In this document: piece by piece, positions 1 to 33,779 of the stretch
Layout of the letters: each line of letters begins with the position of its first letter
Numbering within the stretch: the stretch's first letter is position 1
Source: Raillietiella orientalis
Lineage: Eukaryota
Reading direction: 5' to 3'
Assembly: GCA_036172245.1 (NCBI GenBank)
Contig: JAYWIR010000029.1
Location: 1 to 64,000, forward strand
Length of the DNA stretch: 64,000 nt
Position numbers and translations under genes: made by a program
Notes under the pieces: generated by a model
The model's database searches: none
Seen by the model: only the letters and a program-made list of their open reading frames with translations
What the model was told of the DNA's origin: nothing

Positions 1-1284
1 GTTTGGAACATGTTCGCGGCTCCTCTCCTCCGTTCCTTTATTTTTGTTTGCTCCCCCACAGAGAGGATCAAAAAGCGGACGAGGGACCTCCTCCGTGTCG
101 CCCTTTGGGGCAACGGGAGGGCCTGAGTCCGCTTGAAGGACTTGTGCGCTCCGCGTCGGGACGGTGGTCTTGGCCTCCTGACATTCGAGCGGCTGAAGCT
201 GCAGCTCCAGTTCCGGATTTTGGCACTTGTGCCGGAGTTGTAGTGCATTTGTTGGTGCGTCCCTGCATGTCTCCTCCTTCAGCAAGCCACCGGCAAGACG
301 GGATTTACGTCGTTTCTCGGACTCCACCGAAGCCGCATCAAGCGATGTGGGCTTCAGCTACGGAGGGTGGCTGCGCTGGCAAGGAAAAATCAAGGATGGA
401 TCACCAGTCTCCCCGCGAACGGTAGTGCCTGGTTGCAGGAAACCGTTCGCACGTGGGGACAGTTCGGCATGCAACCCTCCCATCAGGAACGAAGGTTCCT
501 GTTTGGGTGTTACAGAAGTTGCACGCTCCGGGAGATCCTGGAGGATCCTAAGAAGAGAGCGTGGTCAGGAAGAACCCCCCTTGCTGCTGCGCTGGACTCC
601 CTAGTGGAACATCAGGACAGCGATGTTGCGGCAAAGTGGGAGGTTACAATAAAATTCTCCGGGAAGGAGAAGAAGCAGAGAGAGTGGAAGACGGGCCAGC
701 TAACTGATGCTGCGACCCCGAGTTCGCCTCCTAATGGACTTCTGCGCTGGGGAGCGCTGCTGGATGTTCCGATTGAACATCTGAAGTGGCCCCCGTTTCT
801 TATGGACACTTCCATCCTCCCCCTAAAATGGCAGAAGTCGACTTTCCTGTTGCAGCACTGGGGACTCCCCTGCAACGCCCGTCGACACCACTGGACCTGG
901 GGAGCAGTGGATCCCAATTGTGTAAGGTGCGGGGAACGGGAGTCCCTCTCCCACCTCCTAGTGGATTGTGTTGCCCTTCGGCCCCTTTGGTTCCGCTTTG
1001 CCGCGGCCATCGGTATCCCTTGCAGCAACCCCAGGGACGCACTAAAAGCCTTCTTCGTTGCCGACGCCCTGCGGCCAGCGTCCTCGATAGCAGCCTTGTG
1101 CTGCCTTCGTGGGATCGTCGCCTCCTGGAGCACGGCGACAGGAGGACCTAGCGATCAGGAAGCCATCCAGTGCGCCTCCGAATTCCTGAGGAGGGCGTTT
1201 CGATGGCGCCACCTGGATGTTCACAACAAACAAGAGCTTGCCAGCATCCTGAGAGGGATGATGCGGCCCCAGCAGCAACAGTGA
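1..1284 (+). pseudogene. ORF2 C-terminal part (post-RT region and zinc finger), in-frame stop at 124-126
   Basis: Frame 1 reads VWNMFAAPLLR...ALWGNGRA*VRLKDLCAPRRDGGLGL and continues into ORF 367-1284. Confidence 0.88.
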
Positions 1285-1502
1285 TCTCTTCCCGTTCCCT
1301 CCCACCCTTTGTTTTTTTTTGTTTAGTTTTTTTCTTTTTCCCCTTTCCCCTGCTGTCTTGGTGGACCGTACCGGTCTAGAAACCGGTGAATTGGCAGGCG
1401 CCGTGGTTCTTAGCTTCTGGCTGGAGCATTGCCACAGCCATTAATAATTTGTTTACAAAGTTTATGTTTTTAATAAACGACTCGGAGAAATCCGGGTGAA
1501 AA
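1..1502 (+). mobile_element. 3' part of an A-type L1/Tx1-like non-LTR retrotransposon (continues off the left edge)
   Basis: ORF2 C-terminus with zinc finger CVRCGERESLSHLLVDC, pyrimidine-rich 3'UTR, AATAAA at 1472 and hairpin ACTCGGA-GAAA-TCCGGGT. Homologous to the minus-strand A element ending at 18039. Confidence 0.92.
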
Positions 1503-2336
1503 TCGAAAGCTTTACGCAAATCGACTGCGACCGCAAGGGCTCCAGGCACCGCATCTTCTTCCCGGCTTCCCTCCCCCCTGTCAATGGAGAGTCTAGGACT
1601 TTCCCGACGTAGCTGCGCCTCGCGTTGTTGCAACTGCCAGAATGTGCTGGCGAGGAACGGGTTGGCCTCCATGGTTCGTCCGGGAACAGCGTATGTCTGT
1701 TCCGGACTGACCACGGACTCCGCAACCCGTCCCAGGCGCTCAGCCCATAGCTTGGGGAGCAACTTTGTGTCCGCATTCACTACAGTGATGGGATGCCAGT
1801 TGTCAACGTTGCGCAAGTCTCCTCACTTAGGAAGGAGACGTACTCTAGCTGACCGGAACGATTTGGGGACATCCCCACGTTCACGGATCAGCATACATAG
1901 TTTAAGCACCAGAGGAGCCAGCTCTGCCGCGAAGTGTTGGTAGAATTCAGCTGGCAAGCCGTCTTCCCCTGGTGCTTTGTACTTTTTCATTTTAGTGATA
2001 GCGGAGATTATCTCCGCCATCGAGAATTCTTGGAGGAATATGTTTATTTCTTCCTCCCTCATCGCTGGAGCACCCTCTGGCAGCAGGCGCTGCGCAGAGG
2101 AGCGCTCCGGTGGTCTCACCGCGTGAAGGGAGGGATAAAAATCCCGCAGAATGCGGCAAACCTGCGCTGGAGATACGTGCTCCTGGCCTTCTTCGTCGAG
2201 CAAGCAGGCAGACCCGGATTTCCAGGCCTGCCTCTCCGCTCCAGCCTTCATCTCCGCCAGGCGACGGACGTCGGGGTTGTTGGAGAAACGACGGGCCTGG
2301 AGATAGTTCCTGTCGTTCCTCACGCCTTCGCCGAAA
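1503..2336 (-). pseudogene. Middle of element E ORF2 (FGEG linker to RT motif DLRKAFD)
   Basis: ORFs 1823-2323 and 1376-1816 give KAPGEDG, NWHPITVVN, YAVPGR and DLRKAFD, with one stop at 1823. Joins in frame to 54438-55320 across the CGCCGAAA duplication. Confidence 0.88.
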
Positions 2337-2348
2337 GCCGGTGTGGGT

Positions 2349-2355
2349 GGACGTG
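2349..2355 (+). promoter_or_regulatory. Conserved 5' GGACGTG motif, putative internal promoter element (also at 7188, 8581, 10891, 37301, 39738 on +; 31448, 33760, 35155, 51408, 59129 on -)
   Basis: Present 5-13 nt inside all 11 element 5' ends and followed by a T-rich run. The function is inferred. Confidence 0.6.
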
Positions 2356-2444
2356 TTTTTTGGTCGCTCCGCCAGCGCCTGTCTGGGAAGCAACCGGAGT
2401 TTTTTTAGTGTAGTCAGGTGTTAAGTGTGGGTCGTCGGTGTCCG

Positions 2445-4195
2445 ATGGCAGCCGTGCCAGAGGACACCGCGATGGATGTGGTTGTGGGGGAGGCAAGTCC
2501 TACCACAGGACCTACATCTATGGGGGCAATAGTCCCTGGAACGTCTTCGCAGCCGGCGAAGACTTGGAGTGAAATGGTCGCCGCCCCATTGCGGAGGCCA
2601 TGGCCGAGGAAGCCGCCTATCGGGCCTCTGAATACAAGCCATCGCTTGTATACAAGGTAGGCCCTTTGTTTGAAGGAAACACGGCGCGCTCTTTCAGCAG
2701 AGCGCTACAAAATGCTAATGTCCGTGAGGAAGATCTGGACGGTCTGTGCGTGCTCAGCGGGGCGCAGCGGGTTGAGCTGATGTGCAAGAGCATCAGCCTA
2801 GCCGATCGCCTTATAAATACCACGCTGATCATGGACGGCCGTAAGATCTTCCCGGTGTCAATGGACCACTCGGTAGTGGTCCACTTGACAGGAATATCCA
2901 AGCGCATGTCGCGCACTGCCGTAAAAGCAGAATTAAGTAAGTACGGGGACGTACACGTGCTGTGGCCGAAGCCCACAATCTTTGAGGGCTACGGACGCCA
3001 CTTCGGGGGCTTGGCTGCGGCACACGTAACCCCAAAAAACGAAGCGAAGCTACCCCACAAACTTGAGGTCGCGGGAGAACCAGTAGACCTCTGGTATGCT
3101 GGCAAGCCACGGTATTGCGGCTACTGCGATGCGGTCGGACACATCCGTAAGAGGTGCCCGAACATCGTATGCTACTTGTGCGGGGAGAAGGGACACGTCC
3201 GTCGCGTGTGCCCTAAACGCCCCACCCCAATTTCCTCGGCCGCCAAAAAGGCGCAAGCGAAACGCGCGGGGAAAGAAAAATTAGAAAACCGTGAAACTGG
3301 CCGAGAAAAGCTGCCAATAACCCAAGCTCCAAGCGCGGCATCGGAGAAAAATCTTCCCGAAACCGCAGAGGGTGAACAGGGCTGGCAGCTAGTCAAAGCC
3401 AAAAAAGAAAAAAAGGACAAGCATGTCCCGAAGAAAGGAGAGAAGGCGGCGGCCGGAACAAAAGCTCAATCCGTGTCGCGCGTAAAAACTCTCCGAGAAT
3501 GCACGGTTACGCTGGAGCGCATTGACGTTCCCGCCGACACCACCGGAGGCGATACGGCTTCGATCGATTTTCCCGCCGCGACGAATGCGCGCGAAAACCC
3601 ACCCCCCGTTTGCGAAGAGGGTCAGCCGGACGACAAAATCGCCGAAACCAAGGACGCAGCCTTCGAGAAGGCCGCCGAGGAGCTTGCGGCAACGCTTGCC
3701 GAACGCGAGAACCCTTCGCGAAAGGGGTTGCGTAGGCCGGCAGCGGCTAAAGTGGCCCCCGCAGGTGAGTCGGACCGGGAGGCCGGAAGTGCATCCTCCT
3801 CTGCGGAAGCACCACCAAGGAAAGCGGGGCGAAAATCCCAGAAACCCCGAAGGTGCATTGCGCCTCCGCGCGAGGGGGATGCAATGGTGGAGGAACCAGT
3901 GGATGGCAGCGTGGGAGCCCAAGTCGGGCATCACCCACGTGCGGAAGCCGACGAGGAGGCGACTCCAATGGAGGAGGGTAACCAGGGGTCAGCAATGCCC
4001 TCTGAAACCGCCGAACCTGAACCACCCGCACCAATGGATGTGGGCCAACAGGTACGAACAACACCCCCTTCGCACGGGCAGCCGGAGACGTCGGCACGAA
4101 AGAAGGATGGGGAGTTGGTGGGCAAGACGCCAACCCCGTCCAGCGACCCGCCCCAAAAGGTGGCGGGAGCTCCACCGCCAGGTTCCCAGGAATAA
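2445..4195 (+). pseudogene. B0 ORF1, zinc-knuckle nucleic-acid-binding protein, one frameshift near 2585
   Basis: MAAVPEDTAM start in ORF 2418-2660, continuing in ORF 2600-4195 with knuckles CGYCDAVGHIRKRC and CYLCGEKGHVRRVC. Confidence 0.88.
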
Positions 4196-5077
4196 CACCT
4201 GGACTCGCCTGTCGCCGTCGGATCCGCGCGGCCAGTTGGAATGTTAACGGGCTGCGCGACGACGGAAACAGACGAGATACAGCCGCCACCTTGCGAGATT
4301 TCGACCTGGTACTTTTGCAGGAGATCCACGTGATCACCGCAAAAGACGCCCAGGAGATCGAAACGATTGCGGGAGGGCGGTTGTACTGGCGATGCGGCGC
4401 CCGCAACACTTGTGGGGTCGCGTTCTTCCTAAAGCCAGCCATTAACGCGGCCGTGAAGGGCGTGCGCTTTGGGGACGACGGACGGATCGGCCAACTGATT
4501 CTCAGATGGTCCGATTCGATCGACCTCATCGTCACCAATGTGTACGCTCCTAGCGGTAAACAGGGATACCAGCAGCGCAACGCGTTACTGGAAACCTTGA
4601 AGCGCGAATGGCTGGTGGACGCGGACGTGCGAAAGGCGCATCTGATAGCAGGGGATTTCAACGTCCGTCTGCTCTCAGATCAGCCCGGAGCACAGGGTAA
4701 CGCGATCAACGAGTTGTGCGCCGCCATGCGCGCGCGCAACTTGTTGACAGAAATAAGCGGGATGGTCAGCAGCGTGGACCACGTCTTCCTCGACGAAGAC
4801 CTGTGCACACGGGTCGGAAAACGAGGGACACTTGGATCGACGCTGTCGGACCATTCCCGGTTAGTTTTCGAGATGCGCCCGCGCGACAAGGGACCGCCAT
4901 CCAGGGATTGGCGTATGCCAGGGGACTAGACGCGCCTGTCAGGAGCGAAAGAACATCTTCGCGAATTCCTGCGAGGCGTCAGCCTCCAGAGTCTCGCGGA
5001 TTCCGACCTATTTAAGGACTTGGTAAGGGAGTTCTGCGAACAGTTCCCTATGCAACGTCTGCCCCGGGGATTCGGCG
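4195..5077 (+). pseudogene. B0 ORF2 N-terminus, APE endonuclease (no ATG; stop at 4927)
   Basis: Reads TPGLACRRRIRAASWNVNG, LLQE, TNVYAP, AGDFN, VDHVFLD, LSDH, LPRGFG. Confidence 0.88.
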
Positions 5078-7176
5078 TTATCACCCGGGTACGCCCGGGC
5101 CGTTTATTAATGAACTTTACATGCGTGGTACAAAGCCCCACCACGGCCGTAAACACAGAACCTGTCGGGACACCGGGACGCAGCCCGGCGTGGCACTCCC
5201 CGACAGCGAAGGGGGATGGGGATAAGACAAAAAGTAAAATAAAAAGAAACAAACAAAAAGAAGTTGGAGGGCAGGGAAGGGATCACTAGTCGCTGTGGGG
5301 AGGGCCCATCCGTCGAACGAAGCCCTCGAGGTCAGTCTGCATATTCCCCAGTTGGGGCCATCCGGCAGCTCTTCGCAAGAAGCGTTTGGCATACGGGATG
5401 ACATCCCTCGCCTGTGGACCCACTCCTTCGTTGTTGGCGTTGCTCCATGCCCCCACAATGCCACGGACGCAGCACAAGGCTGCGATGGCTGCGGCTGGCT
5501 GCAGTGCGTCCTTCACGAAGAGGGGCCGAAGAACGTCTCTGGGGGTGCTGCCCGTAGGGAGCCCGAGGGTCGTCCCGAACCGTTCCCAAAGGGGTCGTAG
5601 GGCAGCAGAATCCACAATAAGGTGGGGAAGCGACTCCCGCTCCCCGCACCTGGCGGACGCAGGATCCACAGCTCCCCTCGTCCAGTGGAAGAGGCGCGCG
5701 TTGCAGGGTAGACCCCAGTGCAACAAAAGAAACGCCGACTCTTGCCACTTGAGAGGCAGGATCCTCGATTCTTTCATCATCGGGGGCCACTTCAGCTCAT
5801 CCCAGGGGATGGCGAGCAGCTCGCCCCATCTTAATAATCCTCGCGGCTGGACGCTCAAGGTCGTGGCGTCGGCCAGTTCTCCTGTTGTCCAGCCGCTGAT
5901 CAACTTCTTGCGTCCCTCGATGCAGCAGGAGACTTGCCACCTTGGCGTCCGGGTGCTGTGAAGTGCCCGTCTTAGGAAGGGCAGCGCCGTTGCTAGGCAG
6001 GTCGTCTCTGCCCACGTGCATCTTGCTGGACTCTCCAGGAGATTCCGCAGTGTGCAGCGGGCGTAGGGGCTGCATCGGAGAAGATTCCACGTCTCCTGGC
6101 TTCTCTGGTTAACTACTGCCCACGTTCCAATATTCTCCTCCAGCCAGGCGGGAAAGTTGGCGGGGCAGCAAACCATCCAGCTGTTCTCCTTGGCCAATGT
6201 TACCATCCGCCCGAGCAGTAGGCCGCATCTTCGCATCTTCCGGCCACGGCTCAGAAGAAAAGACGCGAGTCCATCGCACCGGGACACACGGCTGGCCAGG
6301 AGGCGGGCCGGAGTGCACCAAGGGGTACTCCACATCTTCGCTGCGATGGCGAGGGTTCGCCACCGCAGCTGCCATGGGCTCCAGCGTCTGGAGAATAAGA
6401 CCGTCGTCCCGACGCGGATCGCGCAAGTCCTTCAGAGGGACTCGGGGCCTCCCCTTGCCCCAAAGGGCGTTGCAGAGGAGTTCCTTTCTCCTCTTTTTAA
6501 TTACTCCTGGGGCGGGGCAAACAAAAAGCAAGAAGCGGAGGATGAGGGCCGCAAAATCGTTCCAAACCGCGGCCCGTTCCGGCAAGTGAAACTTGCCTTC
6601 CAGGAACGGGCCGATCGCCGTGTCGACTTTTTGAAGACAGCTGGACCACGCTTCCGCAGGGGAGTAGTCACCCAACAACACACCAAGGTACTTGAGGCAC
6701 CTCGCCGTGGGGATCCCCAAACGGAACCAGTCCTGCTGCCCTGCCCACGCTGCACCTACTGGCACCAACGACGACTTCGCCCTGTTGACCTGCAGTCCGG
6801 TACCATGGATGAGCAGATCGAAGAAGTCTCCGGCCGCCTTCGCCGGGGTGGACATTGGCAACAAAAGCAGAAGATCGTTGGCGTTCCCTGCTACCGCGGG
6901 AGTGCCGGGGCACGAGATCGGCAATGGGGCCAAAGTCACCCTGTACGCTCTCAGCACCAACTCAAAGTAGGTGCTGAAGAGCAGGGGGCTGAGGCTATCT
7001 CCCTGCCTTATGCCCCGCCGCATTGGCACGCCATACACCTTTTGTCCGCTGAAAGAGACGATAATTATCGCATTCTGCCAGCAAGAGCGCAGGTAGGAAA
7101 TCAGGGAGGGTTGAAAGCCCATGCGACCCAGAAGCTCCAAGAGGAGTTCCTGGTCTACACAGTCGAACGCCTTGTG
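5078..7176 (-). mobile_element. 3' half of a B element (HKAFD to 3' end), frameshifted ORF2
   Basis: ORFs 6109-7140 and 5286-6335 (RRGIRQGDSLSP, YLG, zinc finger) plus the 3' AATAAA-hairpin at 5078-5108. Near-identical to 35173-37276. Confidence 0.92.
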
Positions 7177-8567
7177 CGCTCTAGGGTGGACGTGTTTTCT
7201 CGGTGCTCCTCGTGCCAGGAAGTCTCCCCCAGTGCAAGCGTCGTGTGGTTCGCTGGTCGATCAGGCGGCGATGCCTGACGCGACCACCAGGGATAGCCAG
7301 GGGGCAGCGGCAACGCATCCCCCAGAGGCGATGGAGAGCCAGAAAGCGGCGGAAACGTCGCCCCCAGAGGCGATGGAGATGGGGGCATCCGCCCCCACAG
7401 AATCGGTCCCCGCTGCAGCGCGGGCGTGGAGCGCCGTTGTGTCGGCGCCATCGCCTGCAGCCGCGGCGGAATTGTCGGCCTATGTAGAGGAGGGGTACAA
7501 CCTCTTATTGTTCTACAAGGTAGGCAATTTATATTCTTTAGAGAGCGCGCGCGCCTTCTCGAAGGGCATGCGCGCTCTCGATGTGAAAGAGGAGGAGCTC
7601 AGCGCTATGACCATCCGCAGCGGGAATCAGTACGTTGAAGTCATCTGCAAACAAGCAGAGCTGGCCCAACGACTGCTTAAAACACCCGTGGTGATGGGGA
7701 CGCACAGGCTGCTCCCTATTACGGCGGACCGCAGCATGGTGGTCCACCTGTTAGGTGTTACCACGCGGATGCGCAAGGAACAGGTTCGCGCCGCGTTGGA
7801 GGAATACGGAACGGTCCACGCGCAGTGGACGAAAGTTAGTCCTTTCGAGGAATACACGGGGCTGCAACACGGCCTCACTGCTGCGCGCGTGACCGTTCGG
7901 GAAGGGAGCACTCTTCCGCACAAACTGGTGCTCGAAGGCGAAACCGTCGACCTCTGGTATGTGGGGAAGCCGAAATACTGTGGCTTCTGCAATACGTCGG
8001 GCCACCTCAAAAAGAGGTGTCCCAATGTGCAGTGCCAAGTATGCGGCACAATGGGCCACACGAGGGAGGTGTGCCCAAAAGCAGCAGTGCGGGTGGTTTC
8101 CAAGAGAAACCTAAAAAACGCGCCCGGCTTCTGCAGAAAAGACTGGCGGCGAAAGCTGCCGCGAAGGCTGTGCCACCCGCGCCCAAGACCCAGGCCGCAC
8201 CCGAGACCCCGGCGACCAACGCCGAAAAAGTTGAGGGAGCCGGCCAGGAGACTGAGTGGCAAGTGGCAACAGCCAAAAAATCAAAGAAGGAGAAGAGGAT
8301 GGAAAAGAAAATCGCCTACCAGCAGAAGAAGAAGGAGCAGGGTAGCGCGATAATTAAAGAGTGCAGCGTCGTTGTCGAACGCGTTCTCGATGTTGCCGAA
8401 CGCTGCCGGAAAGAATTCGCCGCTACCGACGACCTCCCTCTGTTGACACAGTCAACAGCGAGGGGAGCGAGCCGGCGGCGGCGTCCGTCATCGACACCAC
8501 CATCGATGACGTAGCCTTCGCGCGAGCCGCGGAGGAGCTGGCAGCCTCGTTGCAGCCAGAACCCTCC
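7177..8567 (+). mobile_element. 5' part of an A element: 5'UTR and ORF1 from ATG 7271 (MPDATT...), frameshifted, cut at LQPEPS by B1
   Basis: GGACGTG at 7188; knuckles CGFCNTSGHLKKRC and CQVCGTMGHTREVC; inverted copy of 33780-35172. Confidence 0.9.
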
Positions 8568-10884
8568 GCGATCAGTTGGAGGACGTGTTTTTCCTTCACT
8601 CCTCAAAGGGTAGTAGGAAAGCGCTTTCTTCTGTGTGGTGTTTTGTGTACATCGTCGGTGTCCAATGGCCACGACGCCAGAGGACACCGCGATGGAGGTT
8701 GGAGTGGGGGAGGCTAGTTCGCCCCCACAGCCTACTGGAGCAGGGGCAGCCGCCCCGGAATCATCCCCGGCCACGCCGAGGACATGGAGCTCCATGGTGG
8801 CCGCGCACAGCGCAGAAGCCATGGCGGAGATGGCCGCATACAAGGCCTCCGGGTACAAGCCATCGCTTGTCTACCAGGTAGGCAACTTGTTCGACGGCCG
8901 GACAGCGCGCGCCTTCAGCAAAGCGTTGAAGCACGCGAATGTTGCAGAGAAGGATCTGGACGGCCTCTCCGTCCTCAGCGGCGGGCAGCGGGTCGAGGTG
9001 GTCTGCAAAGATGTCACCTTGGCTCACCGCCTAATCCATGCGCCGCTGAACGTAGACGGCCGCAAGATCCTGCCAGTATCTATGGACCGCTCCGTGGTGG
9101 TCCACATGACTGGCATCACCAGCCGCATGACGCGGTCAGCGGTTGGTGAGGAACTAAGAAAGTACGGTGAGGTGCACGCACTGTGGCCGAAACCCTCCAT
9201 TTTCGACGGCTTCGATAGCCTTTTTGGTGGGCAGGCTGCAGCGCGGGTCACCGTACGGGAGAATTGTGGGCTTCCCCACAAACTACAGGTGGCGCAAGAA
9301 AACGTCGACCTGTGGTATGTAGGGAAGCCCCGGTATTGCGGGCATTGTGATACCGTGGGACACCTACGTAAAAGGTGTCCCAATATACAATGCCATTTGT
9401 GCGGGGAGCGGGGCCACGTTCGGAGCGTGTGTCCCAAACGCCCCACCCCGGTTCCCCCTGCCGCGAAAAAAGCGCAGGCGAAACGTGCTTCGAAGGTCTC
9501 TAGACCTAAAGTAGAAAAGGGCCAGCACAAGCTACCAACACCTCAACCTCCGGAGCGTAAGCCGGAGGATAAACCTTCTGAAACGGTGGAAGGCGAAGAG
9601 GGATGGAAGCTTGTAGAGGCCAGAAAGCCGAGGAAACTCCCTCCCGCGGAGAGCAAAGAGCGCAAGACGGCCGGTAAGCCGAAAAAACCCGGTCCGCGCT
9701 CGAAAACTCTGCGCGAGTGCACGGTGGCACTAGAACGAATCGTCGTTCCCGAGATTGCCACCCGGAGCGTCGATCCTCCCCTTGCCGCTTCCGCTGCGCC
9801 CGAGGCTCGCGACGGCGAACCCTCTGTTTACACAGAGGGTGAGCCGCGCGACATAGCGGCGGTCGAAGCCGCGGACGCCGCGTTCGCGCAGGCGGCGGAG
9901 GAGCTCGCGGTCACGCTGGCCGAGCGCGAGAACCCCTCGCGCAAGGCCGTGCGAAGGCCGGCTCCGGCGAAGAAGGCCCCCACAGGTGAGTTAGACCTGG
10001 GGGCCGGAAGTACATCCTCCTCCTCGGAGGCACCCTCCAGGAAGTCGGGACGCAAGTCCCAGAAGCCCAGGAGGCGCCTCCCCTCCACCAGCGAGGAGGA
10101 GAAGACGGAAGCCGTCGCCAGCGTGGGAAATTCGGAGGAAGAATTCCCACGCTCGGAAGCCGTCGATGCGGCCACCCCCATGGAGGAGGGTGAACAGGGG
10201 GGTGAACTCCCCCCTGCAGGCGCCGACCCTGAACAGCCCGCCCCCATGGAGGAGGGCGAACAGGTAGGCGCGACTCCACCTGCGGGTGATCCGGCCGACG
10301 CGCCGGCACCGATTGGGGAGGGGGACCAGGTGCCTTCAGCACCTGACCCCCCTGCTCCACCTAGCGTCCCGCCTCAGCAGGTGGCGGACGCCGCACTGCC
10401 ATCTTCCCAGGAGTAACACCTGGGCTCGCCAGTCGCCGTCGGATTCGCGCGGCCTGTTGGAATGTCAACGGGCTGCGCGACGACGGTAACAGGCGAGATA
10501 CAGCCGACACCCTGCGGGAGTTCGACCTGGCCCTGTTGCAGTAGATCCACGTGATCACCGCGGCAGACGTCCAGGAGATCGAGACGATCGCGGGGGGTCG
10601 GCTGTACTGGCAATGCGGCATCCGCAACACCTGCGGGGTCGCGTTCTTCGTGACGCCGGCCATCGACGCTGCCGTGAAGGGCGTGCGCTTCGATGACGAC
10701 GGTCGGGTCGGTCAGCTGACTCTCGGCTGGTCCGACTCGATCGATCTGATCGTCACGAATGTGTACGCCCCAGCCGGTCAAAAGGGATACAGCAACCGTA
10801 CCAGGCTGCTTGAATCCCTGAAGCGCGACTGGCTGGCGAACACGAGCGTGCGGAAGGCTCACCTGATAGCGGGCGATTTCAATC
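8568..10884 (+). mobile_element. 5' part of B1 element (5'UTR, ORF1, endonuclease to GDFN)
   Basis: GGACGTG at 8581; ORF1; ORF2 starts TPGLASRRRIRAACWNVNG at 10416 with a stop at 10541; ends at ATTTCAATC. Confidence 0.92.
8665..10416 (+). CDS. B1 ORF1, intact gag-like zinc-knuckle protein (583 aa)
   Basis: Uninterrupted frame from MATTPEDTAMEV with knuckles CGHCDTVGHLRKRC and CHLCGERGHVRSVC and a PMEEG-repeat tail. Confidence 0.9.
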   Translation: MATTPEDTAMEVGVGEASSPPQPTGAGAAAPESSPATPRTWSSMVAAHSAEAMAEMAAYKASGYKPSLVYQVGNLFDGRTARAFSKALKHANVAEKDLDGLSVLSGGQRVEVVCKDVTLAHRLIHAPLNVDGRKILPVSMDRSVVVHMTGITSRMTRSAVGEELRKYGEVHALWPKPSIFDGFDSLFGGQAAARVTVRENCGLPHKLQVAQENVDLWYVGKPRYCGHCDTVGHLRKRCPNIQCHLCGERGHVRSVCPKRPTPVPPAAKKAQAKRASKVSRPKVEKGQHKLPTPQPPERKPEDKPSETVEGEEGWKLVEARKPRKLPPAESKERKTAGKPKKPGPRSKTLRECTVALERIVVPEIATRSVDPPLAASAAPEARDGEPSVYTEGEPRDIAAVEAADAAFAQAAEELAVTLAERENPSRKAVRRPAPAKKAPTGELDLGAGSTSSSSEAPSRKSGRKSQKPRRRLPSTSEEEKTEAVASVGNSEEEFPRSEAVDAATPMEEGEQGGELPPAGADPEQPAPMEEGEQVGATPPAGDPADAPAPIGEGDQVPSAPDPPAPPSVPPQQVADAALPSSQE

Positions 10885-10962
10885 GAGTGCGGACGTGTTT
10901 TTCTTCGCTCTCGTCTCCGTGCTTTCATCCGCTTCATCTTGGCGTCGTACATTTTGACGACG

Positions 10963-12885
10963 ATGTCGACCCAACCCGAAGCTACTGAAGTTGGAGGAAC
11001 AGCATCCGGATCTGCAATCGCGGAACCAGCGGCCGCCTCCACTTCGTCTTTCTCGCCAATGGAGAGGAGTTTTGCTGACGTTGCTGCCACAGCAGCCGTC
11101 AAAGGGAAACCACTCGACGAGTCGGAGTTGCGGGCATACGTAGCCCAAGGCTATAGACCTGCTCTCCGATATAAGGTGAGTGGCTTTCTTTCTGCGCGCG
11201 ACGGAAACCAGTTCAACGATGAACTGACCCGTGTTGGCGTGCGGGAGCATGACCTTCTCGCCATTATGCCCGTAAAAGACATGGGCTATTTCAAGGTGCG
11301 TTGCAAAGACGCTGCACTTGTGCAACGCTTGCTGCACACCCCGTTGTCGATCCGTGGCCAGAAGGTCTTCCCGGCCGCCATGGACGACTCATTTGTGGCG
11401 GAGATTTTCGACATCGAGTCGGAAATCTCCGATATTGATATTCGGAACGCGTTGGCGAAATTCGCCACGGTCCATGCGCTGTGGAGGGTGCGTAGCAACC
11501 TCAAGGACTTCCCGTCCATACACAGCGGAGTCGCTGGAGTCCGGCTTACAATGCCGGACCGCCGTCTGCTGCCCACCAAAATACAGTTGAAGGACACGGT
11601 CGTTCACCTGTGGTTCGTGGGCAAAGTAAGAACGTGCGAGCAATGCGGGAAGGAGGGGCATTGTTTGGATAAATGCCCCTCTGGAAAATGCCGTTATTGC
11701 AAACTATCCGGGCACCAATTGAAAAATTGCCCGGATCTTTTGCGAAAAAAGGCAGCCGCGGAGCTCCATCTTAAAAAACAAAGCGCGGATAAAAAGAAAA
11801 AATCTGCGAAAAACCTGGAGACCCCACGGCAGAAATTCCGAAAAAACGCGAGGCGGAATGTCGCCCCAAAGCAGCAGGAAACCTCGCACGCGAAGCCCTG
11901 CGCGCCCCCTCTCGCGGCAGGGGAGCCGCAAAAGAAAGGGTGCGGGGAATCCGGGGCAATGGTAAGTCCCCCTAGGCGCAATAGCTGTCCTTCCCAAGCA
12001 CGCCCGGCTCTCTCTGAGTTCGAGCAACCGGCGGGGACGCCAATGCACAACGGCGGTAAGGACACTTCCAGTACCGTCAGATCCATCCCTTCACCTCCTG
12101 CAGTGTCTGAGAAGCCCAAATCGGGTAAGAAGGGTTGTGCCGTGTCGACTTCGAAAGTCGGCAAAAAAAAATCCGCGTCGCGATCCAACACCGCGAAAGC
12201 GGAGAAAAATCTCACGCCGTCGCAGTCGGAGAGCAAGCTCTCGAATGGCGCGGATGCCATGCCAACGAAGGGATTGAAAGCCCTTACGAAGGCAGCGTCC
12301 ATGACGAGCGTGTCGAAGCCATCGAAAGTGCTCCCGTCCAAAGACGAGGATGGCTTCAAAGATGGCAATAAAGCACAATCTTCATTTACGGCGCCACGCG
12401 AAGTGAGGAACCGTAATGAAGTAAAGAAGACTTCAGCAAAGGTCCCTCGTGCAACTGCGCGTGAGCACGCTGAAAACGCGCGTGCCGGGAAAGCAGCCGT
12501 CACCAAAAGCGATGCTCTGGTGACAGAAAACGAAAACAGGACAGCTGTCAATCCAGCAGAACCTGTCACTGCTTCGCGGAAGGCCGAAACCCGATCGAAC
12601 ATGCGCCGGTCGGACTCCGAAATGGATGCCGTTCCGATCACCGAGACGAGGACAAATCGTTCGAAAGCGTGTGCGCGCCGATCAAAAGTAGGCAGCCAGG
12701 CAACGCTGGCCGCGAAGCAACGCGAAGTCTCCACGAAACCCGACGGGGTTAAGCCTGGCGTGGAGGCATTACATGCATGCAGCACGACAGAGGACGGTGG
12801 CGACCGTCCCCTCCAGCCAGTCGTGCTGCTCGCCGTCTGCTCGCCGGATAAAGCGAGCAAAAAGCTGCCACCTACCCAGCAGTAA
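10963..12885 (+). CDS. C ORF1, intact gag-like zinc-knuckle protein (640 aa)
   Basis: MSTQPEATEV start; knuckles CEQCGKEGHCLDKC and CRYCKLSGHQLKNC; long Lys/Ser/Ala-rich tail. Confidence 0.88.
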   Translation: MSTQPEATEVGGTASGSAIAEPAAASTSSFSPMERSFADVAATAAVKGKPLDESELRAYVAQGYRPALRYKVSGFLSARDGNQFNDELTRVGVREHDLLAIMPVKDMGYFKVRCKDAALVQRLLHTPLSIRGQKVFPAAMDDSFVAEIFDIESEISDIDIRNALAKFATVHALWRVRSNLKDFPSIHSGVAGVRLTMPDRRLLPTKIQLKDTVVHLWFVGKVRTCEQCGKEGHCLDKCPSGKCRYCKLSGHQLKNCPDLLRKKAAAELHLKKQSADKKKKSAKNLETPRQKFRKNARRNVAPKQQETSHAKPCAPPLAAGEPQKKGCGESGAMVSPPRRNSCPSQARPALSEFEQPAGTPMHNGGKDTSSTVRSIPSPPAVSEKPKSGKKGCAVSTSKVGKKKSASRSNTAKAEKNLTPSQSESKLSNGADAMPTKGLKALTKAASMTSVSKPSKVLPSKDEDGFKDGNKAQSSFTAPREVRNRNEVKKTSAKVPRATAREHAENARAGKAAVTKSDALVTENENRTAVNPAEPVTASRKAETRSNMRRSDSEMDAVPITETRTNRSKACARRSKVGSQATLAAKQREVSTKPDGVKPGVEALHACSTTEDGGDRPLQPVVLLAVCSPDKASKKLPPTQQ

Positions 12886-15800
12886 TGCGGGGAATCGGGT
12901 CTTCTCGTCGTCTGTCCGTAACGTGTTGGAACGTGAACGGACTGCAGAACGACGAGAAGAGGCGATTAGTAGCCAACGCCCTGCGCCCCTTCGACCTCGC
13001 GCTGCTGCAGGAGATTCACGTAATCTCCGACGAGCAGGCAGCCGAAATCGAGGAGAGCGCAGGCGGAACGCTACATTGGCGGTGCGGCGGCGCACACACG
13101 TGCGGCGTCGCGTTCCTCATAAGAGGAAAAATGGCGGAAGCGGTGCGTAGTGTTCGTTTCGATGACAACGGACGGATAGGCCAGCTTGTCATCAAGTGGT
13201 CCGAGTCCATCGTTCTCGTCGTTACGAACGACTACGCGCCGAGTGGCTCTCGCTACCTCGAAGAAAGAGTAGCTTTCTTTGGTGAGGTGCAGAGCCACTG
13301 GCTCAACAACTCCGGTTTCCAAGTGGCGCACCTCGTCGCTGGGGACTTCAACGTCCGCCTGCTCTCCGACGATTGGAGCCGCCCGAGGGAGCGCGCGCTG
13401 CCCCTCGAGATGTGCGCGTCCGTGCACGCCGCCAACTTGATGGTCAGCGAACCTGGAATGGAAAGATCGCTCGATCACGTTTTCCTCGATGAAAACCTGC
13501 ATTCGCGTGTGGGTAGGAGAGGAAGATTGTTGACTAGGCTCTCTGACCACCACAGGTTGGAGTTTGAGATCCTTCCGCCAGTCAGGGGGCCTCCGTTGAG
13601 CAGCTGGAGGATGCAGGCGGATTGGCTTAGCCAACCGGAGGCTGCGGAGCATCTACGTGGGTACCTCTGAGGCTTTGCCATTCAAGAACTTGAGGACTGG
13701 GACGATCTCAAAAGATCTGTCCGCGAGTTCTGTTGTCAATTCCCTTTGCACCGGCTTCCACGCGGTTTCGGAGAGGGCGTGGCCAACAGTAAAGACTTTC
13801 TGCAGGCCCGCACGTTTTCGAGACGCGCGGATGTCGGGCGTCTCGTGCAAGCGAGAGGCCGAGCGCCAGGTCCTGGCGGTCCGGGGCAGCATGTTGGACG
13901 GCAAAGGGCCGAAATGTTCGGCCCCAGCCGAAGTACGTTACGTGTGAGACGCTACTACTCCTCGCTCTACGCGGAATCCCCGACGAAGGATATTCTTTCT
14001 GAGATACTCGTGTCTCAGGACGCTCGTGTTGTCGGCCGGAGGAACGCGAAAGTCTCGCTGAGCCCTTCACGGCAGAGGAAATTTCCTCGGCCATCTCGGG
14101 GCTCAAGAGACGAAAAGCGCCAGGCGAAGATGGGCTCCACCGAGGTTTATCGATGCCGGTGGAGCTCATTCCTTTGATGCTGAAACTCGCGACGCTGATG
14201 AGTGAATCCGGGAATGTCCCGGAATCCTTCCGCTCAGCGAAGGTGCGTCTACTGCCGAATGGCGGAGACTTGCGCCAACTTAACAACTGGCGTCCGATCA
14301 CCTTGGTGACCTCGGACGTCAAGTTGTTTTCCAAGCTGTGGGTCGCGCGGTAAGGAAGAATCGCGGAATCTGTGGTGAGCCCGGAACAAACCTACGCGGT
14401 TGCGGGACGATCCATGGAGGCGAACATCCTTTCGCGCGTACATGGCAGCAGCAGGAAGTTGTGGCGCAGCAAAGCCAGGCTGCTGAGAAAGTCACTGCCG
14501 CAGGCAAGAACAGCAGCTGCAGGCAAGAACAGGCGCCGACGGCAGGAGGGAACGCCAGGTGCCTTGGCGGTCGTGGTCGATCTCCACAAGGCGTTCGACT
14601 GCGTAAACCAGAAGCTGCTTTTGGAGCTTATGGAACGCCTTGGGTTCCCGGCGCAACTCCTGCTGTATTTGCGCGCGTGCTGGCGCCACGCGCTAACCTG
14701 CATCACTTTTAGCGGCTGCCGCGTGTATGTTATTCCCGTTCGTAGGGGCATCCGACAGGGCGACAGCTTAAGCCCGTTGCTCTTCAGCATCTTCTTTGAG
14801 TTGGTGCTAAGAGCATACAGGCTGACGCTGTCTCACTTGCCAAGCTCCTGCCCGGGAACGCCTGCCGTGGCCGCCTACGCTGATGACCTGCTTCTTCTAC
14901 TCCCCATGTCCACCCCGGCGTCCAGTGTCGAGGATTTCTTCGACCTGATTCGTCGGGGAGCGGGCGTGAGCGTGAACAGAGAGAAGAGCGTGGTCGTTCC
15001 TGTGGGTACGTCGTGGGAGGGGCAGTCCGACTGGATCCGCCTGGGGATCCCCACGGGCGAGTACTTTAAGTACCTTGGCGTTCCGTTGGGCGCTTTCGGC
15101 GCAGCCGAAGCGTGGGCGGACTGTCTTCAGAAAGCAGAGTTGGCCATCAGCCCGTTCTTTAACGGCAAGTTTACCTTGCAGGAACGGGCGACTATTTGGA
15201 ACACCTTTGTGGCCCCCTCCTCCGTCCCCTGTTTTTTGTTTTGGACCCCCCCTATGCGGCAAAACAGCGGGCTAAGCGCCTGCTCAGGAACGCTCTCTGG
15301 GGTCCGGCGAGATCCAGGAACCGCCTTAAAGATTTGTCAGCTCCGCGTCGGGATGCTGGTTTGGGTATCCTGACAATGGAGCGAATCGGACTGCAGGTGC
15401 AGTTTCGACTGCTGGCACTGTGTGCCCAGCTATGGACATCCCCCCTGTGTGTGCCAGCTCGCATTCTCCTGCGGAGATGCGCCGGCAGCGGAGGATTTCT
15501 CTCGCTTTTGCCGGGCACTCAATACAGGAAGCGGGGTTTCGGGTTTCCATTGCGGCAGTTGACCGCACTTCTGGAAGCACACACTTGGATCTCCTGCCGC
15601 CCAATGAACTTTGAAGCTTGGCGGCAGGAGTATGTTGAATCCTGGGCGGCGTTCCAAGGAATACGCCCTGAAGATCTTCGCTTCCTGCGCCAATTTTTTC
15701 CACGATCCTTGGAAGAAGTACTGCAGGACGAGGTGAAGTTTTCTACCATGACTGCCACGCCTCTTGCCGCAGCGCTGTCTGCCCTCAGGGCAAGTAACGA

Positions 15801-16473
15801 CAGTTACCAACCGGCGAGGTGGGAGGTTTCCTGCACGATAGCGGAAAGAACCAAACTCCTTGACACCTGGAAGACAAGTGAGTTGGCGGACGCCGCCACT
15901 CCTCGTGTTACTGCAAAGGGACTCCTCCGGTGGGCAGAAGAACTTGCTGTCACTCCCGAAGAACTTGTAGTCCCTCTACAGTGTATGGACAGTTCGCTGC
16001 TCCCTCTTGCTTGCAAACAAGCCGTGCTGCTTTTCGTTCACTCTGGTTTTCAGTGCAACGAGCGTTGGCATCGTGACTCCGTGGGACTTGCGTCTGCGAA
16101 CTGCGTTCGGTGCGGATCGACGGAGTCGATTCCGCACCTACTTCTGGACTGCGGTGTCCTACAAGGACTGTGGCGTAGGCTGACAACAGCACTATTGCAT
16201 CCCGTGGACACCGCAAGAGACTTGCTGCGACGATTCTTCACGCCGAGCGGGCTTTCACTAAGCGCAAGGATTGCAACCATCGGTTGCATACGCGCGATAG
16301 TTTCCGTCCGCCAGGCGTTGGTAATCAGCGGACAGCACCAAGAGGTAATCAGCAAAGCATCCTTCTACATGGGAGCATCCGCTAGATGGCCTCATTTGAC
16401 AGAGGAGACAAAGAGGAATCTCGCCGCAATACACCGCCGGTTTACACACCCTCATCAGTTGCCAACCCGGTGA
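12885..16473 (+). pseudogene. C copy 1 ORF2 (APE-RT-zinc finger), several stops and frameshifts
   Basis: Fragments 12885-13670, 14153-14353, 14372-15373 (KAFD, RQGD, YADD, YLG) and 15196-16473. Confidence 0.9.
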
Positions 16474-16786
16474 TCATTGCCCTACCCTCCATAAACTAAA
16501 TTTGTATTTTCTTTTTACACCCGCGTCCCCATAGGCTCCGGAACATTTAAGGTGCTCATCGTATAAATCCCCGTGAGTACGGAGCCTAACCAAAAACCCG
16601 TTACCCTTCCCTCCAGTTTTTGATTTTTGTTTGTTTCCCGTCATTCCTCCCGCGCTGCGAGCGGTTTGTTTACCAGGCCTGCGTGCCTGTAATTTTTCTA
16701 TGTTCTCTGTCGTTCTGTTGGTTAAGGACATTGTCCCTGACCAGTTTATCATTATTAATAAACGCCCCGGCGTGACCGGGTGATAA

Positions 16787-18038
16787 ATTTCAATCTCCGC
16801 CTGCTAACAGGTGAGCCGGAAACACAAGTGAACGCGATGAACGAGTTGTGCGTTGCCATGCGTGCGCGCAACTTGTTCGCGGGTGAGAGGGGAATGGTCC
16901 GCAGCATCGACCACGTCTTCCTCGACGCTGACCTGTGTTCACGGGTCGGCAAACGGGGGAGGGTTGCGTCAACGTTGTCGGACCATTCCCGGTTAATTTT
17001 CGAGATGCGGCCTCGCGACAAAGGACCGCCATCCAGAGACTGGCGTCTGCCGGGGGACTGGACGCGACTCTCAGGTGCGAAGGAACACCTTCGCGACTAC
17101 CTGAGAGGCGTCACGCTCCGGAATCTCCAAGACTGGGACCTTTTTAAGGAATCGGTCCGGGAATTCTGCGAGCAGTTCCCCCTGGACCGCCTGCCCTCCG
17201 GATTCGGCGAGGGTCCTCGCAACCATCGGGCGTATTTACAGGCCCGTAGGTACGAGCGAACCCCTAATGTCCGTCGCCTGGCCGAGTACCGCGCCGGGGC
17301 CGAACGCCAAGCCTGGCAATCCGGGTCGGACAGCTTGCTGGACGACCAGGGCCGGGAATGTTCTTCCCCGGCGTCGGTACGGCATCTCTTGCGGAGTTTT
17401 TATTCCTCCCTTTACGCCAGGGAGCCCCCGGATCGAAACGCCTCTCGGCGCTTGCTTCCGGATGGCGCCCCGGCAATAGGGGAGGAGGAGATGGAAAGCC
17501 TCGACGAGCCTTTTGCCACCGGCGAAATTCTCGCCGGTATCAAAAGGCTCAAGAGGCGTAAAGCTCCAGGGGAAGACGGCTTGCCCGCGGAGTTCTTTCA
17601 GAGCTTCGCGGAAGAGCTGGCACCCCTGCTGCTCAAGTTGATCAGGCTGATCCGAGACGAAGGCGATGTTCCCGCCTCGTTTCGGTCAGCCAGAGTGAGG
17701 CTCCTTCCGAAAGGGGGAGACCTCAGGGATTTAAAGAACTGGCGTCCGATCACGATCGTGAATGCGGACGCCAAGTTGATCGCAGGGCTATGGGCTTCGC
17801 GTCTAAGGCAGGTGGCAGAATCCGTAATTAGCCCGGAGCAGACTTATGCTGTTCCCGGGCGAAGTGTGGATGCCAACCTCTTCTTCGCAAGCACATGGGT
17901 GCACCTGCAGAGAAGAGAGAAGAAAGGGATAGGGAAAGTCGGCAACCCCACATTGGGGCCGCCAGCCGGGCTGGGAAACGACCCCCGGGCGGGGAAGGGG
18001 GCCCTAGCGCTCGCAGTCGATCTCCACAAGGCGTTCGA
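16787..18038 (+). pseudogene. B ORF2 continuation (FN... to DLHKAFD), open frame truncated by the A insertion
   Basis: ORF 16780-18078 minus its junction-derived ends: IDHVFLD, LSDH, GFGEG, KAPGEDG, NWRPI, DLHKAFD. Confidence 0.9.
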
Positions 18039-18256
18039 TTTTCACCCGGATTTCGCTGGGGCGTTTATTGTAAAATAAACTTTTACAAAGACGTGCGGTG
18101 GCTGGACCATTGCTCCAGCCACGCACGAAGAAACACAGAGCCTGCCGGGTCAACGGTTCGCAGACCGGTACGGTCCACCACGGCAGCAAAGGGAAGGGGG
18201 GAAAACAAAAAACAAAACAAAAAAGAAAAGAAAAGTTGGGAGGGTAAGGGAGGGGA

Positions 18257-21200: not shown

Positions 21201-21838
21201 CCGCGCCTGCCCACGCGAGGGCACAGGTGCTCGTCAAGAAACACGTGGTCAATGCTGTCTTCCATCTTCGGTGCACTGGCCAACAGATTAAAGGTGTGCA
21301 CCGCCATGCACACCTCGTTGACCAGGTCACGCTCGGGATTCTGCTCATCTGGTTTCAGGCGAACGTTGAAATCGCCTGCAACCAGATGGGCATTCTGCAC
21401 GCCTGCTTCGGTCAGCCAGTCTCGCCAGAGGGCAAGGAAAAACTCTTTCCTCGCCCTCCTGTTCATCAGGTCCTTGCCGCTCGGTGCGTACACGTTCGTG
21501 ACGATCAGATCGATCGAGTCGGACCACCTGAGAGTCAGCTGGCCGACACGACCGTGATCGTCGAACCGCACGCCCCGAGCCGCGGCCTCGACGGCTGGCC
21601 GAAGCAGGTAGGCGACACCGCAACTTTTCGCTCTCCCACACCTGTACCATAGCCGCCCTCCGGAGATCCTTTCGATCTCTCTCGCTTGTTCTGCAGAGAT
21701 CACGTGGATCTCCTGCAGCAGCGCAAGGTCGTAGGACTCGAGAAGGGCGGCCATGTCTCGTCTACTGCCGGCGTCTGTCATGCCGTTCACATTCCAAACG
21801 GCGATGCACAGACGACGGCGGGAGGAGATTCCCGGCAT
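18257..21838 (-). pseudogene. A ORF2 (APE-RT-zinc finger), frameshift near 20800 and stop at 18551
   Basis: ORFs 20795-21838 (WNVNG, GDFN, SDH), 18551-20641 (KAFD, YADD, zinc finger) and 18257-18445. Confidence 0.92.
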
Positions 21839-22220
21839 TACTGCTGGGAAGATTAAGGTGTGGGGGAGCCCTCCTCTTGCGAGGCGGGCGGGATGTCCAT
21901 GGGGGTTTCGGCCTTCTCAGGCACCTGAGTCACCTGTTCGGCCTCCACCCCCTCCATCCCCTCCGTGTTGGTGCGTGGGAGTTTCTCGGGCGACGGGTTC
22001 CGAGAGTTTCCCACGCTCATGGCACCCTCGCTTGCGGAAGCCATCTCTTCCCCTTCGACGGGGGAGACGAGCTTCCTTGGCTTTGTGGACTTACGTCCAG
22101 CCTTCTTGCGCGGTGCCGTGGAAACGCAGGCTGCGCTTCCGGCCTCCACCTCGGGGTCGGAAGTGAGGGACTCCTGAGGGGAGGCCGGACGCCTTACGGC
22201 CTTCTTGCCAGCCTTGGAGG
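21838..22220 (-). pseudogene. A ORF1 C-terminal part
   Basis: SKAGKKAVRRPASP...RKKAGRKSTKPRK, colinear with the ORF1 tail of element D (49679-50326). Confidence 0.8.
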
Positions 22221-22431
22221 TTTACACCCAAGTACGCCCGGGGCGTTTATTTTAAAAAAACTCGACATCCGCGGTACAAGGCCCCGCTCACGGCCATATG
22301 CACTGGACCTGCCGGGACACCGGGACGCAGCCCAGCGTAGCGTTCCTCAGCAGCGAAGGGGGATGGGGATAAAACAAAAAGAAAAATAAAAAAAATAAAC
22401 AGACAAAAAGAAGTTAAGGGCAGGGAAGGGA

Positions 22432-25400: not shown

Positions 25401-25568
25401 GTTTGCCGACCCGTGAACACAGGTCAGCGTCGAGGAAGACGTGGTCGATGCTGCGGACCATTCCCCTCTCACCCGCGAACAAGTTGCGCGCACGCATGGC
25501 GGCGCCCAACTCGTTCATCGCGTTCACTTGTGTTTCCGGCTCACCTGTTAGCAGGCGGAGATTGAAAT
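22432..25568 (-). pseudogene. B1 ORF2, 3' portion (end of APE, RT, zinc finger) with in-frame stops
   Basis: Colinear ORFs 25192-25575, 24382-25179, 23344-24378 and 22432-23325. Confidence 0.9.
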
Positions 25569-25881
25569 TTATCACTCGGTCACGCCGGGGCGTTTATTAA
25601 TAATGATAAACTGGTCAGGGACAATGTCCCCAACCAAGAGAACGACAGAGAACATAGAAAATTTACCGGCACGCAGGCCTGGTAAACAAACCGCTCGCAG
25701 CGTGGGGGGAATGAGGGGAAACAAACAAAAATCAAAAACTGGAGGGAAGGGTAACGGGTTTTTGGTTAGGCTCCGTACTCACGGGGATTTAAACGATGAG
25801 CACCTAAAATGTTCCGGAGCCTATGGGGACGCGGGTGTAAAAAGAAAATACAAAAATAGTTTATGGAGGGTAGGGCAATGA

Positions 25882-31382: not shown

Positions 31383-31928
31383 CGTCGTCAAATTGTACGA
31401 CGCCAAGATGAAGCGGATGAAAGCACGGAGACGAGAGCGAAGAAAAACACGTCCGCACTCGATTGAAATCTCCCGCTATCAGGTGAGCCTTCCGCACGCT
31501 CGTGTTCGCCAGCCAGTCGCGCTTCAAGGATTCAAGCAGCCTGGTACGGTTGCTGTATCCCTTTTGACCGGTTGGGGCGTACACATTCGTGACGATCAGA
31601 TCGATCGAGTCCGACAAGCCGAGAGTCAGCTGACCGACCCGACCGTCGTCATCGAAGCGCACGCCCTTCACGGCAGCGTCGATGGCCGGCTTCACGAAGA
31701 ACGCGACCCCGCAGGTGTTGCGGATGCCGCATTGCCAGTACAGCCGACCCCCCGCGATCGTCTCGATCTCCTGGACGTCTGCCGCGGTGATCACGTGGAT
31801 CTCCTGCAACCGGGCCAGGTCGAACTCCCGCAGGGTGTCGGCTGTATCTCGCCTGTTACCGTCGTCGCGCAGCCCGTTGACATTCCAACAGGCCGCGCGA
31901 ATCCGACGGCGACTGGCGAGCCCAGGTG

Positions 31929-33680: not shown

Positions 33681-33779
33681 TGGACACCGACGATGTACAC
33701 AAAACACCACACTGAACAAAAAGCGCTTTCCTACTACTCTTTAGGGAGTGAAGGAAAAACACGTCCTCCAGCTGGCCGC

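Follow-up and report, generated by a model that had tools for sequence, protein, structure and literature searches.

The 64-kb window analyzed here (the whole stretch of positions 1 to 64,000 of contig JAYWIR010000029.1 from Raillietiella orientalis; GenBank assembly: GCA_036172245.1) consists almost entirely of retrotransposons that lack long terminal repeats (non-LTR), i.e., long interspersed nuclear elements (hereinafter LINEs), nested in each other at a G+C content of ~0.59. We mapped it by means of self-comparison, searches for element-end signatures, junction read-outs, and mapping with reference elements and proteins. A Pfam scan of 41 long frames recovered, on both strands, the PF03372 endonuclease, RVT_1, a C-terminal zf-RVT, and first open reading frames (ORF1s) with CCHC-knuckles; no Rfam families were found in the 64 kb. 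We focus on one of these LINE families, the A type, copies of which adjoin, in antisense, the codons for the residues K-A-F-D (hereinafter KAFD) in motif A of the reverse transcriptase (RT) of other LINEs. The A type is autonomous and ~5.6 kb long, and codes for an ORF1 and for an ORF2 with an apurinic/apyrimidinic endonuclease (APE), an RT, and a CCHC finger; its 3′ end comprises AATAAA, a hairpin, and GTGAAAA. The evidence for its specificity comes from within this single rearranged window and amounts to three (at most four) insertion events.

A-type junctions at the KAFD codons

One A-type copy (A2, minus strand) is complete. Its 5′ part (P#2; 33775–35172, with the 5′ end at 35172) and its 3′ part (18039–22221; APE, RT, CCHC, and 3′ untranslated region [UTR], with the end ...CCGGGTGAAAA at 18039) are separated by a complete B-type element lodged in ORF1 at site p (B2; 22222–33774, minus strand), the own KAFD site of which (24317–24327) is intact. 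Read as 35172–33775 plus 22221–18039, the two parts are collinear across site p with an uninterrupted full-length relative of the A type (A#3; 45884–51422, minus strand, 5539 bp). A2 is thus a full-length insert, and its ORF2 (PF03372, E=2.5e-13; RVT_1, E=1.4e-22; zf-RVT) has near-intact motifs, retaining GDFN, SDH, KAFD, YADD, and CCHC, with one in-frame TGA. Having an ORF2 with APE and RT, no LTRs, and a complete copy bounded by a target-site duplication (TSD), the A type belongs to the APE-type LINEs. The APE domain is coded for at 20798–21916 (minus strand); the TGA (20795–20797) lies between the endonuclease and RT parts, and the aligned residue of the B type is Cys.

The junctions and their orientation can be read directly from the sequence. 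A search for A-type 3′ ends (15 nt, up to three mismatches) returned two true ends, plus an internal match at 3821 that is spurious. At the first of these junctions (J1; 1502/1503), the A-type end ...AAATCCGGGTGAAAA at 1488–1502 is followed from 1503 by TCGAAAGCTTTACGCAAATCGAC, the reverse complement of which reads GTC GAT TTG CGT AAA GCT TTC GA, i.e., V D L R K A F D. The insert at J1 is an A-type 3′ part (A#0; 1–1502, plus strand) that continues past the left window edge and comprises the RT C-terminus, zf-RVT, and a 3′ UTR with AATAAA, the hairpin, and the end ...CCGGGTGAAAA (3′ signature at 1488–1502); it shows 84.8% identity to A2 positions 4083–5581. Its host (host E; 1503–2340, minus strand) is a piece of ORF2 from a distinct LINE family and extends exactly from a further insertion site discussed below (site q; 2340) to the KAFD codons (1503). 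Host E has a nucleotide identity of 70–71% to the B and A families, and tblastn covers residues 147–436 of Q1_up. At the second 3′ junction (J2), GTCGATCTCCACAAGGCGTTCGA (V D L H K A F D) occupies 18015–18038 of the plus strand and is followed from 18039 by TTTTCACCCGGATTT, the reverse-complemented A-type 3′ end. The host here is a B-type element, present from the 5′ end up to its KAFD codons (Q#1; 8573–18038, plus strand), and its translation passes from ...LAVDLHKAFD into the antisense A end (FHPDF...). In the sense of the insert, the two 3′ flanks are TCGAAAGC at 1503 and TCGAACGC at 18038 (other strand); in the sense of the host they are GTCGATTTGCGTAAAGCTTTCGA and GTCGATCTCCACAAGGCGTTCGA, respectively, both of which code for V-D-L-(R/H)-K-A-F-D.

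On the 5′ side, the A-type end (CGCTCTAGGGTGGACGTGTTTTC...) adjoins CACAAGGCGTTCGA at both 7163–7176 (J3) and 35173–35186 (J4), and a variant 5′ end, TGCTCCAGGGTGGACG, adjoins CGCAAGGCGTTCGA at 59147–59160 (J5). At J3, the insert is an A-type 5′ part running from the 5′ end to site p in ORF1, where a B-type insertion truncates it (P#1; 7177–8572, plus strand; 94.8% identity to A2 positions 1–1396, 5′ signature at 7184–7198), and the host is a B-type segment from the KAFD codons to the 3′ end (B-down#1; 5078–7176, minus strand). At J4, A2 meets the corresponding B-type segment B-down#2 (35173–37276, plus strand), which shows 91.3% identity to B-down#1 and 95.1% to the uninterrupted B-type element B#3, each over 900 nt. 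At J5, a third A-type copy, represented by its 5′ part (P#3; 57991–59146, minus strand, 5′ end at 59146; 94.97–96.5% identity to A2 in two pieces), meets an old, decayed B-like RT fragment that begins at the KAFD codons (host J5; 59147–60561, plus strand; 77.5% identity to B-down#2). In the window, both 3′ ends (2/2) and all 5′ ends (3/3) of the A type fall at the KAFD site, at the same nucleotide and in antisense. The original prediction, which placed antisense A-type insertions exactly at D-L-x-K-A-F-D codons, accordingly stands, and every junction that it had named is present in the sequence. We also considered an L1-type twin-priming inversion, with an inverted RT half beside the 5′ end, and rejected it: the segment at 7177 and 35172 belongs to the A family and not to the B host.

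The 3′ and 5′ junction classes overlap by 14 nt, and the copy left of A2 at J2 (18025–18038) equals the copy to its right at J4 (35173–35186) letter for letter. When the flanks of A2 are joined, one open RT frame is restored (LAVDLHKAFD/CVDQELL), with 95–96% identity to the uninterrupted copy at 51420–54437. The identical 14-nt copies and the rejoined frame are the mark left by target-primed reverse transcription, with a TSD of 14 bp, and bear out the proposal that 18038 and 35173 form such a duplication. It is likely that these two junctions stem from one event; the pairing is less than certain because the array is rearranged and any 3′ junction here would overlap any 5′ junction by the same 14 nt. 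For example, the complete B element extending over 8573–37276 has A-type sequence to its left and site-q sequence to its right.

Independence and specificity of the insertions

Recurrence of the junction in diverged hosts is directly visible, and several lines of comparison suggest that it reflects separate events. Between J4 and J5, the insert sides are 96.6% identical (P#2 and P#3, 900 nt) and the host sides 77.5%; between J1 and J2, the values are 83.7% and 70.4%, respectively. A maximum-likelihood tree of the hosts, computed from the 1300 nt downstream of the KAFD site in 11 copies, has the topology (hostJ5,(B2 intact,(Bdown1,(Bdown2,B3 intact)))) with supports of 83–100, so that the J5 host is the deepest branch of the B clade, and the intact B2 and B#3 fall inside the clade of the hit hosts, rendering the latter paraphyletic. 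Given this paraphyly, a single ancestral insertion would require two precise losses, and LINEs are not known to be lost precisely. Furthermore, in 100-nt bins counted from the junction, the similarity between hit hosts is no higher than that between hit and intact hosts: the J5 host has 80 and 77% identity to the hit hosts in its first two bins, as against 82 and 75% to the intact B#3. The absence of raised similarity beside the junctions gives no sign of an insertion having been copied from host to host with its flanking sequence. The distances between the inserts, with P#2 and P#3 closest, also conflict with the host tree, in which B-down#1 and B-down#2 are closest. By these sequence comparisons, at least three events look independent, namely those at 1503 (host E), at 18038 plus 35173 (a young B host), and at 59147 (an old B-like host). 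The predicted minimum of three is thereby upheld by the identity breaks, the paraphyletic hosts, and the lack of a co-conversion signal; the possibility that the hosts are recombinants of one insertion, which had been named as a refutation, is countered by the nesting of intact copies among hit ones.

The fourth candidate event fares differently. Positions 5065–18038 and 37289–24317 form a 13-kb inverted repeat of 94% identity with a 6.3-kb spacer, and its arms have the KAFD site and site q as their exact limits. The junction sequences at 7163 and 35173, one in each arm, are identical to the letter; both junctions exist as predicted, and owing to this identity they may be one event. The divergence of the arms varies by component (B-down, 8.35%; 5′ part of A, 5.1%; 5′ part of B, 2.9%; C, 4.7%; upstream part of B, 6.9%) and is also patchy within components, ranging from 1.75 to 13.75% per 400 nt. 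This pattern fits repeated site-specific nesting and duplication followed by gene conversion alike.

We consider it probable, on the basis of these junctions, that the A type is a sequence-specific APE LINE, akin to R1 and Tx1L in habit, whose target in this genome is essentially the stretch coding for KAFD in the RT motif A of other LINE families. The target would be ~8–11 nt long, AA(R)GC(K)TTCGA. As in target-specific APE LINEs, the window has A-type insertions at one site and in one orientation, as well as apparently independent insertions into different target copies. The pentamer TTCGA occurs 140 times on both strands of the window, with 13 of these occurrences in KAFD codons, and GC[GT]TTCGA occurs 14 times. 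Under a rule specifying TTCGA only, three independent hits would all fall in KAFD codons with a chance of (13/140)^3 or ~8e-4; the comparison of 140 with 14 occurrences therefore indicates a recognized sequence of more than 5 nt, about 8 nt or longer.

The geometry of the junctions, by analogy with R1Bm, TRAS1, and Tx1L, suggests a mechanism. The endonuclease of the element would nick the host-sense strand directly after TTCGA (candidate target-bearing stretch, GTCGATCTCCACAAGGCGTTCGACTGTGTGG), and the A RNA would be reverse-transcribed, beginning at its ...GUGAAAA end, with the resulting 3′ OH as the primer. Priming from the host-sense strand would leave the insert antisense to the host RT gene. 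A second cut on the other strand, 14 nt upstream, would then give rise to the 14-bp duplication (C)ACAAGGCGTTCGA. We further infer that the endonuclease itself would confer the specificity, that the nicks would occur in this order, and that the rule would hold genome-wide.

Several observations weigh against this reading. Occupancy is partial, as eight of the KAFD sites in the window remain intact and unoccupied. Among these, the site of B#3 (52322–52365, plus strand; GTCGATCTCCACAAGGCGTTCGA followed by CTGTGTAGACC), our reference for an empty site in the B hosts, is unoccupied though it equals the hit B host over the 30 nt that precede the nick and the 6 nt that follow. The C-type copies (n=3), likewise unoccupied, match the 14-nt duplicated stretch (13/14 in C#3) and diverge farther upstream and after the third downstream base. 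The relative A#3 (80% identity to A2 in ORF2) lies at a different position of B#3, where 13 bp (GATTCCGGAGCGT; flanks at 45871–45896 and 51410–51435) are duplicated, and has a 3′ end, ...CCCGGGTTTCAATAAA, unlike that of A2; the own KAFD site of its host (52335–52345) is intact. KAFD specificity is accordingly a property of the A family proper and not of all its relatives; the broader claim that A- and E-type elements as a whole target KAFD survives for the A family proper and fails for A#3. Moreover, the patchy divergence of the inverted repeat and the discordant flanks of the B elements show recombination and gene conversion to be active in this region, which could copy junctions. Finally, a single window is at issue, no other copy of these elements having been recovered from public collections. 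The own KAFD codons of the A family read AAAGCATTCGA, and the position that differs is G or T at every hit site; the difference may amount to self-avoidance in this small sample.

The same signs of recombination are the core of an explanation without target specificity, in which one or two chance A insertions in an RT gene were multiplied and carried over to further host copies, within a scrambled LINE array, through segmental duplication, through recombination between unequal partners, and through gene conversion. The 13-kb inverted duplication indeed contains the same nested junctions, including the letter-identical 7163 and 35173, its divergence is patchy along the arms as conversion would leave it, and the flanks of the B elements do not match as a pre-insertion site would. 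We nevertheless regard this explanation as unlikely: the J1, J4, and J5 hosts differ by 22–30% and their inserts by only 3.4–16%, intact copies nest among the hit hosts, no host tract beside the junctions appears co-converted, and the closest inserts (P#2 and P#3) do not sit in the closest hosts (B-down#1 and B-down#2). It would also be improbable for a heterology of 5.6 kb to be converted between hosts with an identity of only 70–77%.

Alternatively, a loose preference for TTCGA-like nicks could be combined with steering to LINE islands by chromatin or by a heterochromatin or centromere tether, the KAFD recurrence being a small-sample coincidence aided by the abundance of the motif. That every element in the window sits in other LINEs, that the relative A#3 uses a different site, and that there are other single-use sites (p, r, and s) would agree with such steering; we give it little credence in view of three independent hits on KAFD at the same base and strand, with p ~8e-4 under the 5-nt rule (13/140 TTCGA). 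An assembly artefact, with fold-back or chimeric joins in a repeat-rich region creating false junctions, appears highly improbable. Mis-assembly can produce layouts like this inverted repeat and its 6.3-kb spacer, and the contigs of sequencing run X1 mostly match the window at <95% identity (399 of 527 pieces, 212 of them <90%), with none among the matches listed spanning the stretch. However, the repeat arms differ by ~6% rather than the 0% of a fold-back, the TSDs are clean and the element termini complete, and an assembler cannot invent the same junction type with three host sequences and two diverged insert subfamilies.

Other elements and recurrent sites in the window

All LINE families in the window share the architecture of their ends, namely a 5′ motif GGACGTGTTTT(T/C), located within a few bases of the 5′ terminus, and a 3′ end composed of AATAAACG, a 5–7-bp hairpin, and GTGA(A/T)AA (e.g., at 7177–7200, 10883–10905, 16750–16786, and 18039–18075). 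Poly(A) runs were found at none of the 11 element 3′ ends checked in the window. At all three A-type 5′ junctions (7121–7176, 35173–35228, and 59147–59202), the ORF1 frame is open to an ATG lying 56 nt within the host antisense strand, which may be chance in GC-rich DNA.

Two further sites are used repeatedly. At site q, B-like elements (E2, B#1, the B host, and B#3) lie antisense at the G-F-G/E-G codons (TTCGGCG|A) that separate APE from RT in other ORF2s. In the sense of the insert, the flank reads CGCCGAA(A/T)CC, and it is seen at 2340 (2329–2340), 5077 (5065–5077), 37277–37290, and 54438 (54438–54447). The element E2 (2341–5077, plus strand) is B-like with 73% identity, and an E2-like endonuclease fragment occupies 54438–55341 (minus strand). 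The inserts at 5077 and 54438 are 90.5% identical and their hosts 68.9%, an identity break by which these events too look independent. B#3 (37291–54437, plus strand) carries both A#3 and a C-type element, and follows B-down#2 across a 14-nt spacer (CGCCGAATCCCCGC; 37277–37290) with the two B-type elements head to tail on either side. The first 13 nt of this spacer equal the site q of E2 (5065–5077) and show 4/13 mismatches to the far flank of B#3, so that the flanks of B#3 are not a simple duplication pair. The site of A#3, ~90 nt upstream of site q, adds a third antisense site to this region of ORF2.

Three C-type elements (5.9 kb), all in sense and each with the 8-bp duplication ATTTCAAT, interrupt the B endonuclease within its G-D-F-N codons. 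These copies are a full element in Q#1 (C#1; 10883–16786, junction pair 10875–10890 and 16779–16794), one in B2 (C#2; 25569–31462, junction pair 31455–31470 and 25561–25576), and one in B#3 (C#3; 39730–45543, junction pair 39722–39737 and 45536–45551). The three insertions may be copies of one event. A 5′-truncated C-like LINE (D; 55656–57990, plus strand) ends with AATAAACGTTTCGGCGCAACCGGGTAATAAA and interrupts P#3 at about A2 position 1122. It ends antisense within the ORF1 of P#3 (57960–58010), where intact copies read ...GTTGTCGAACGCGTTC, which is KAFD-target-like. The right end of the window (60700–64000) has a lower G+C content (0.51) and only weak, decayed RT remnants (e.g., 62241–62699, minus strand, 25% identity to the A2 RT), and is possibly an older element layer or the edge of the LINE island.

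Considering these sites together, one can tentatively envisage, as a possibility short of an even chance, a guild of related APE LINE families that insert into each other's ORF2s, every family with an endonuclease adapted to a site of conserved codons, with A directed to KAFD (antisense), B-like elements to G-F-G/E-G (antisense), and C to G-D-F-N (sense) of their rivals. Such families would inactivate each other, purifying selection would keep the sites available, and self-nesting islands would result.

The closest relative protein (P0001; 619 aa), from one metagenome contig, shows 66–75% identity and an intact DLRKAFDCVDQ; all others have 41% or less. Fish relatives reach 35–37%, and one of the nearest named relatives shares its cluster with a member labelled by NCBI as 'transposon TX1 uncharacterized 149 kDa protein'. 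The best endonuclease profile is PF03372, combined with a C-terminal zf-RVT, a pairing that we take to be of L1/Tx1 type; this domain set and the TX1-labelled cluster member give a hint toward the L1/Tx1 side. The top score in one protein search (P0071) was a sea-turtle gene model made of tandem LINE pieces and was dismissed as irrelevant. A metagenome search with the pattern AATAAACG-N11-12-CCGGGTGA recovered at least 120 loci, none of which had nucleotide similarity to the window among the matches listed. One of these loci (L115) has RT-level tblastx similarity, and was rejected as its pattern match is a chance occurrence within an unrelated AT-rich RT. In a junction-peptide search with the last 44 residues of the host ORF (...KAFDFHPDF...), five candidates shared words and none scored. 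Of the sequencing runs, X1 has 0.36 of the sampled words, and X2 and X3 match only the low-complexity stretch 1297–1351. A single X1 contig joins 10875 to 16787, skipping the C-type element (with 21 letters on the shorter side), and another single contig joins 7136 to 1501 with 23 letters between, in an uninterrupted VDLRKAFDSVDQEL frame at a depth of 2; we counted neither as evidence.

Comparison with known systems

If the A type indeed targets the KAFD codons, the active-site codons of the RTs of other LINEs would constitute a new target class for site-specific LINEs, one kept both conserved and multicopy by selection on the rival elements themselves. Each insertion would destroy a copy of a competitor and harm no host gene, providing a concrete system for competition between transposable elements and a mechanism for the growth of nested LINE islands. 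The A type would also offer an APE endonuclease that occurs naturally and recognizes a long site, for comparison with those of R1Bm, TRAS1, and Tx1L. In the open-access full-text literature, Repbase reports being outside its scope, we found no description of a LINE that targets the RT motif of another LINE.

Like R1, TRAS1, and SART1, the A type is an APE LINE that sits at a single exact sequence within a target present in many copies, and the target duplication of R1 is 14 bp, as is that of the A type. It differs from these elements in that its target is the coding sequence of another retrotransposon's RT motif rather than rDNA or telomeric repeats, in that it inserts antisense, and in lacking poly(A). 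According to one account (PMC4640811), R1, TRAS, and SART make up the R1 clade, Tx1L, Keno, and others make up the Tx1 clade, and the targets of target-specific APE LINEs include rRNA and small-RNA genes, microsatellites, telomeric repeats, and transposons. For R1Bm, TRAS1, and Tx1L, another (PMC1919474) gives an endonuclease recognition of about 8–10 bp around the nick, with which the length indicated for the A type agrees.

The nesting of LINEs in LINEs into islands resembles that of Zepp/ZeppL, which nest in existing copies and form islands thought to be centromeric, the Zepp arrays being described as mostly made up of 5′-truncated 3′ ends nested in copies of their own family (PMC8226300). 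The situation here is distinct from such self-nesting: there is no poly(A) at the 11 ends, and elements of several families, a number of the copies being full length, are nested between families at fixed ORF2 codon sites with defined TSDs. Tx1L/Tx2L of Xenopus laevis resemble the A type in being site-specific APE LINEs with a target inside another transposable element (PMC1919474 and PMC6719617). However, Tx1L inserts into the DNA transposon Tx1D according to the same sources, whereas the A type appears to target the catalytic-motif codons of other LINEs.

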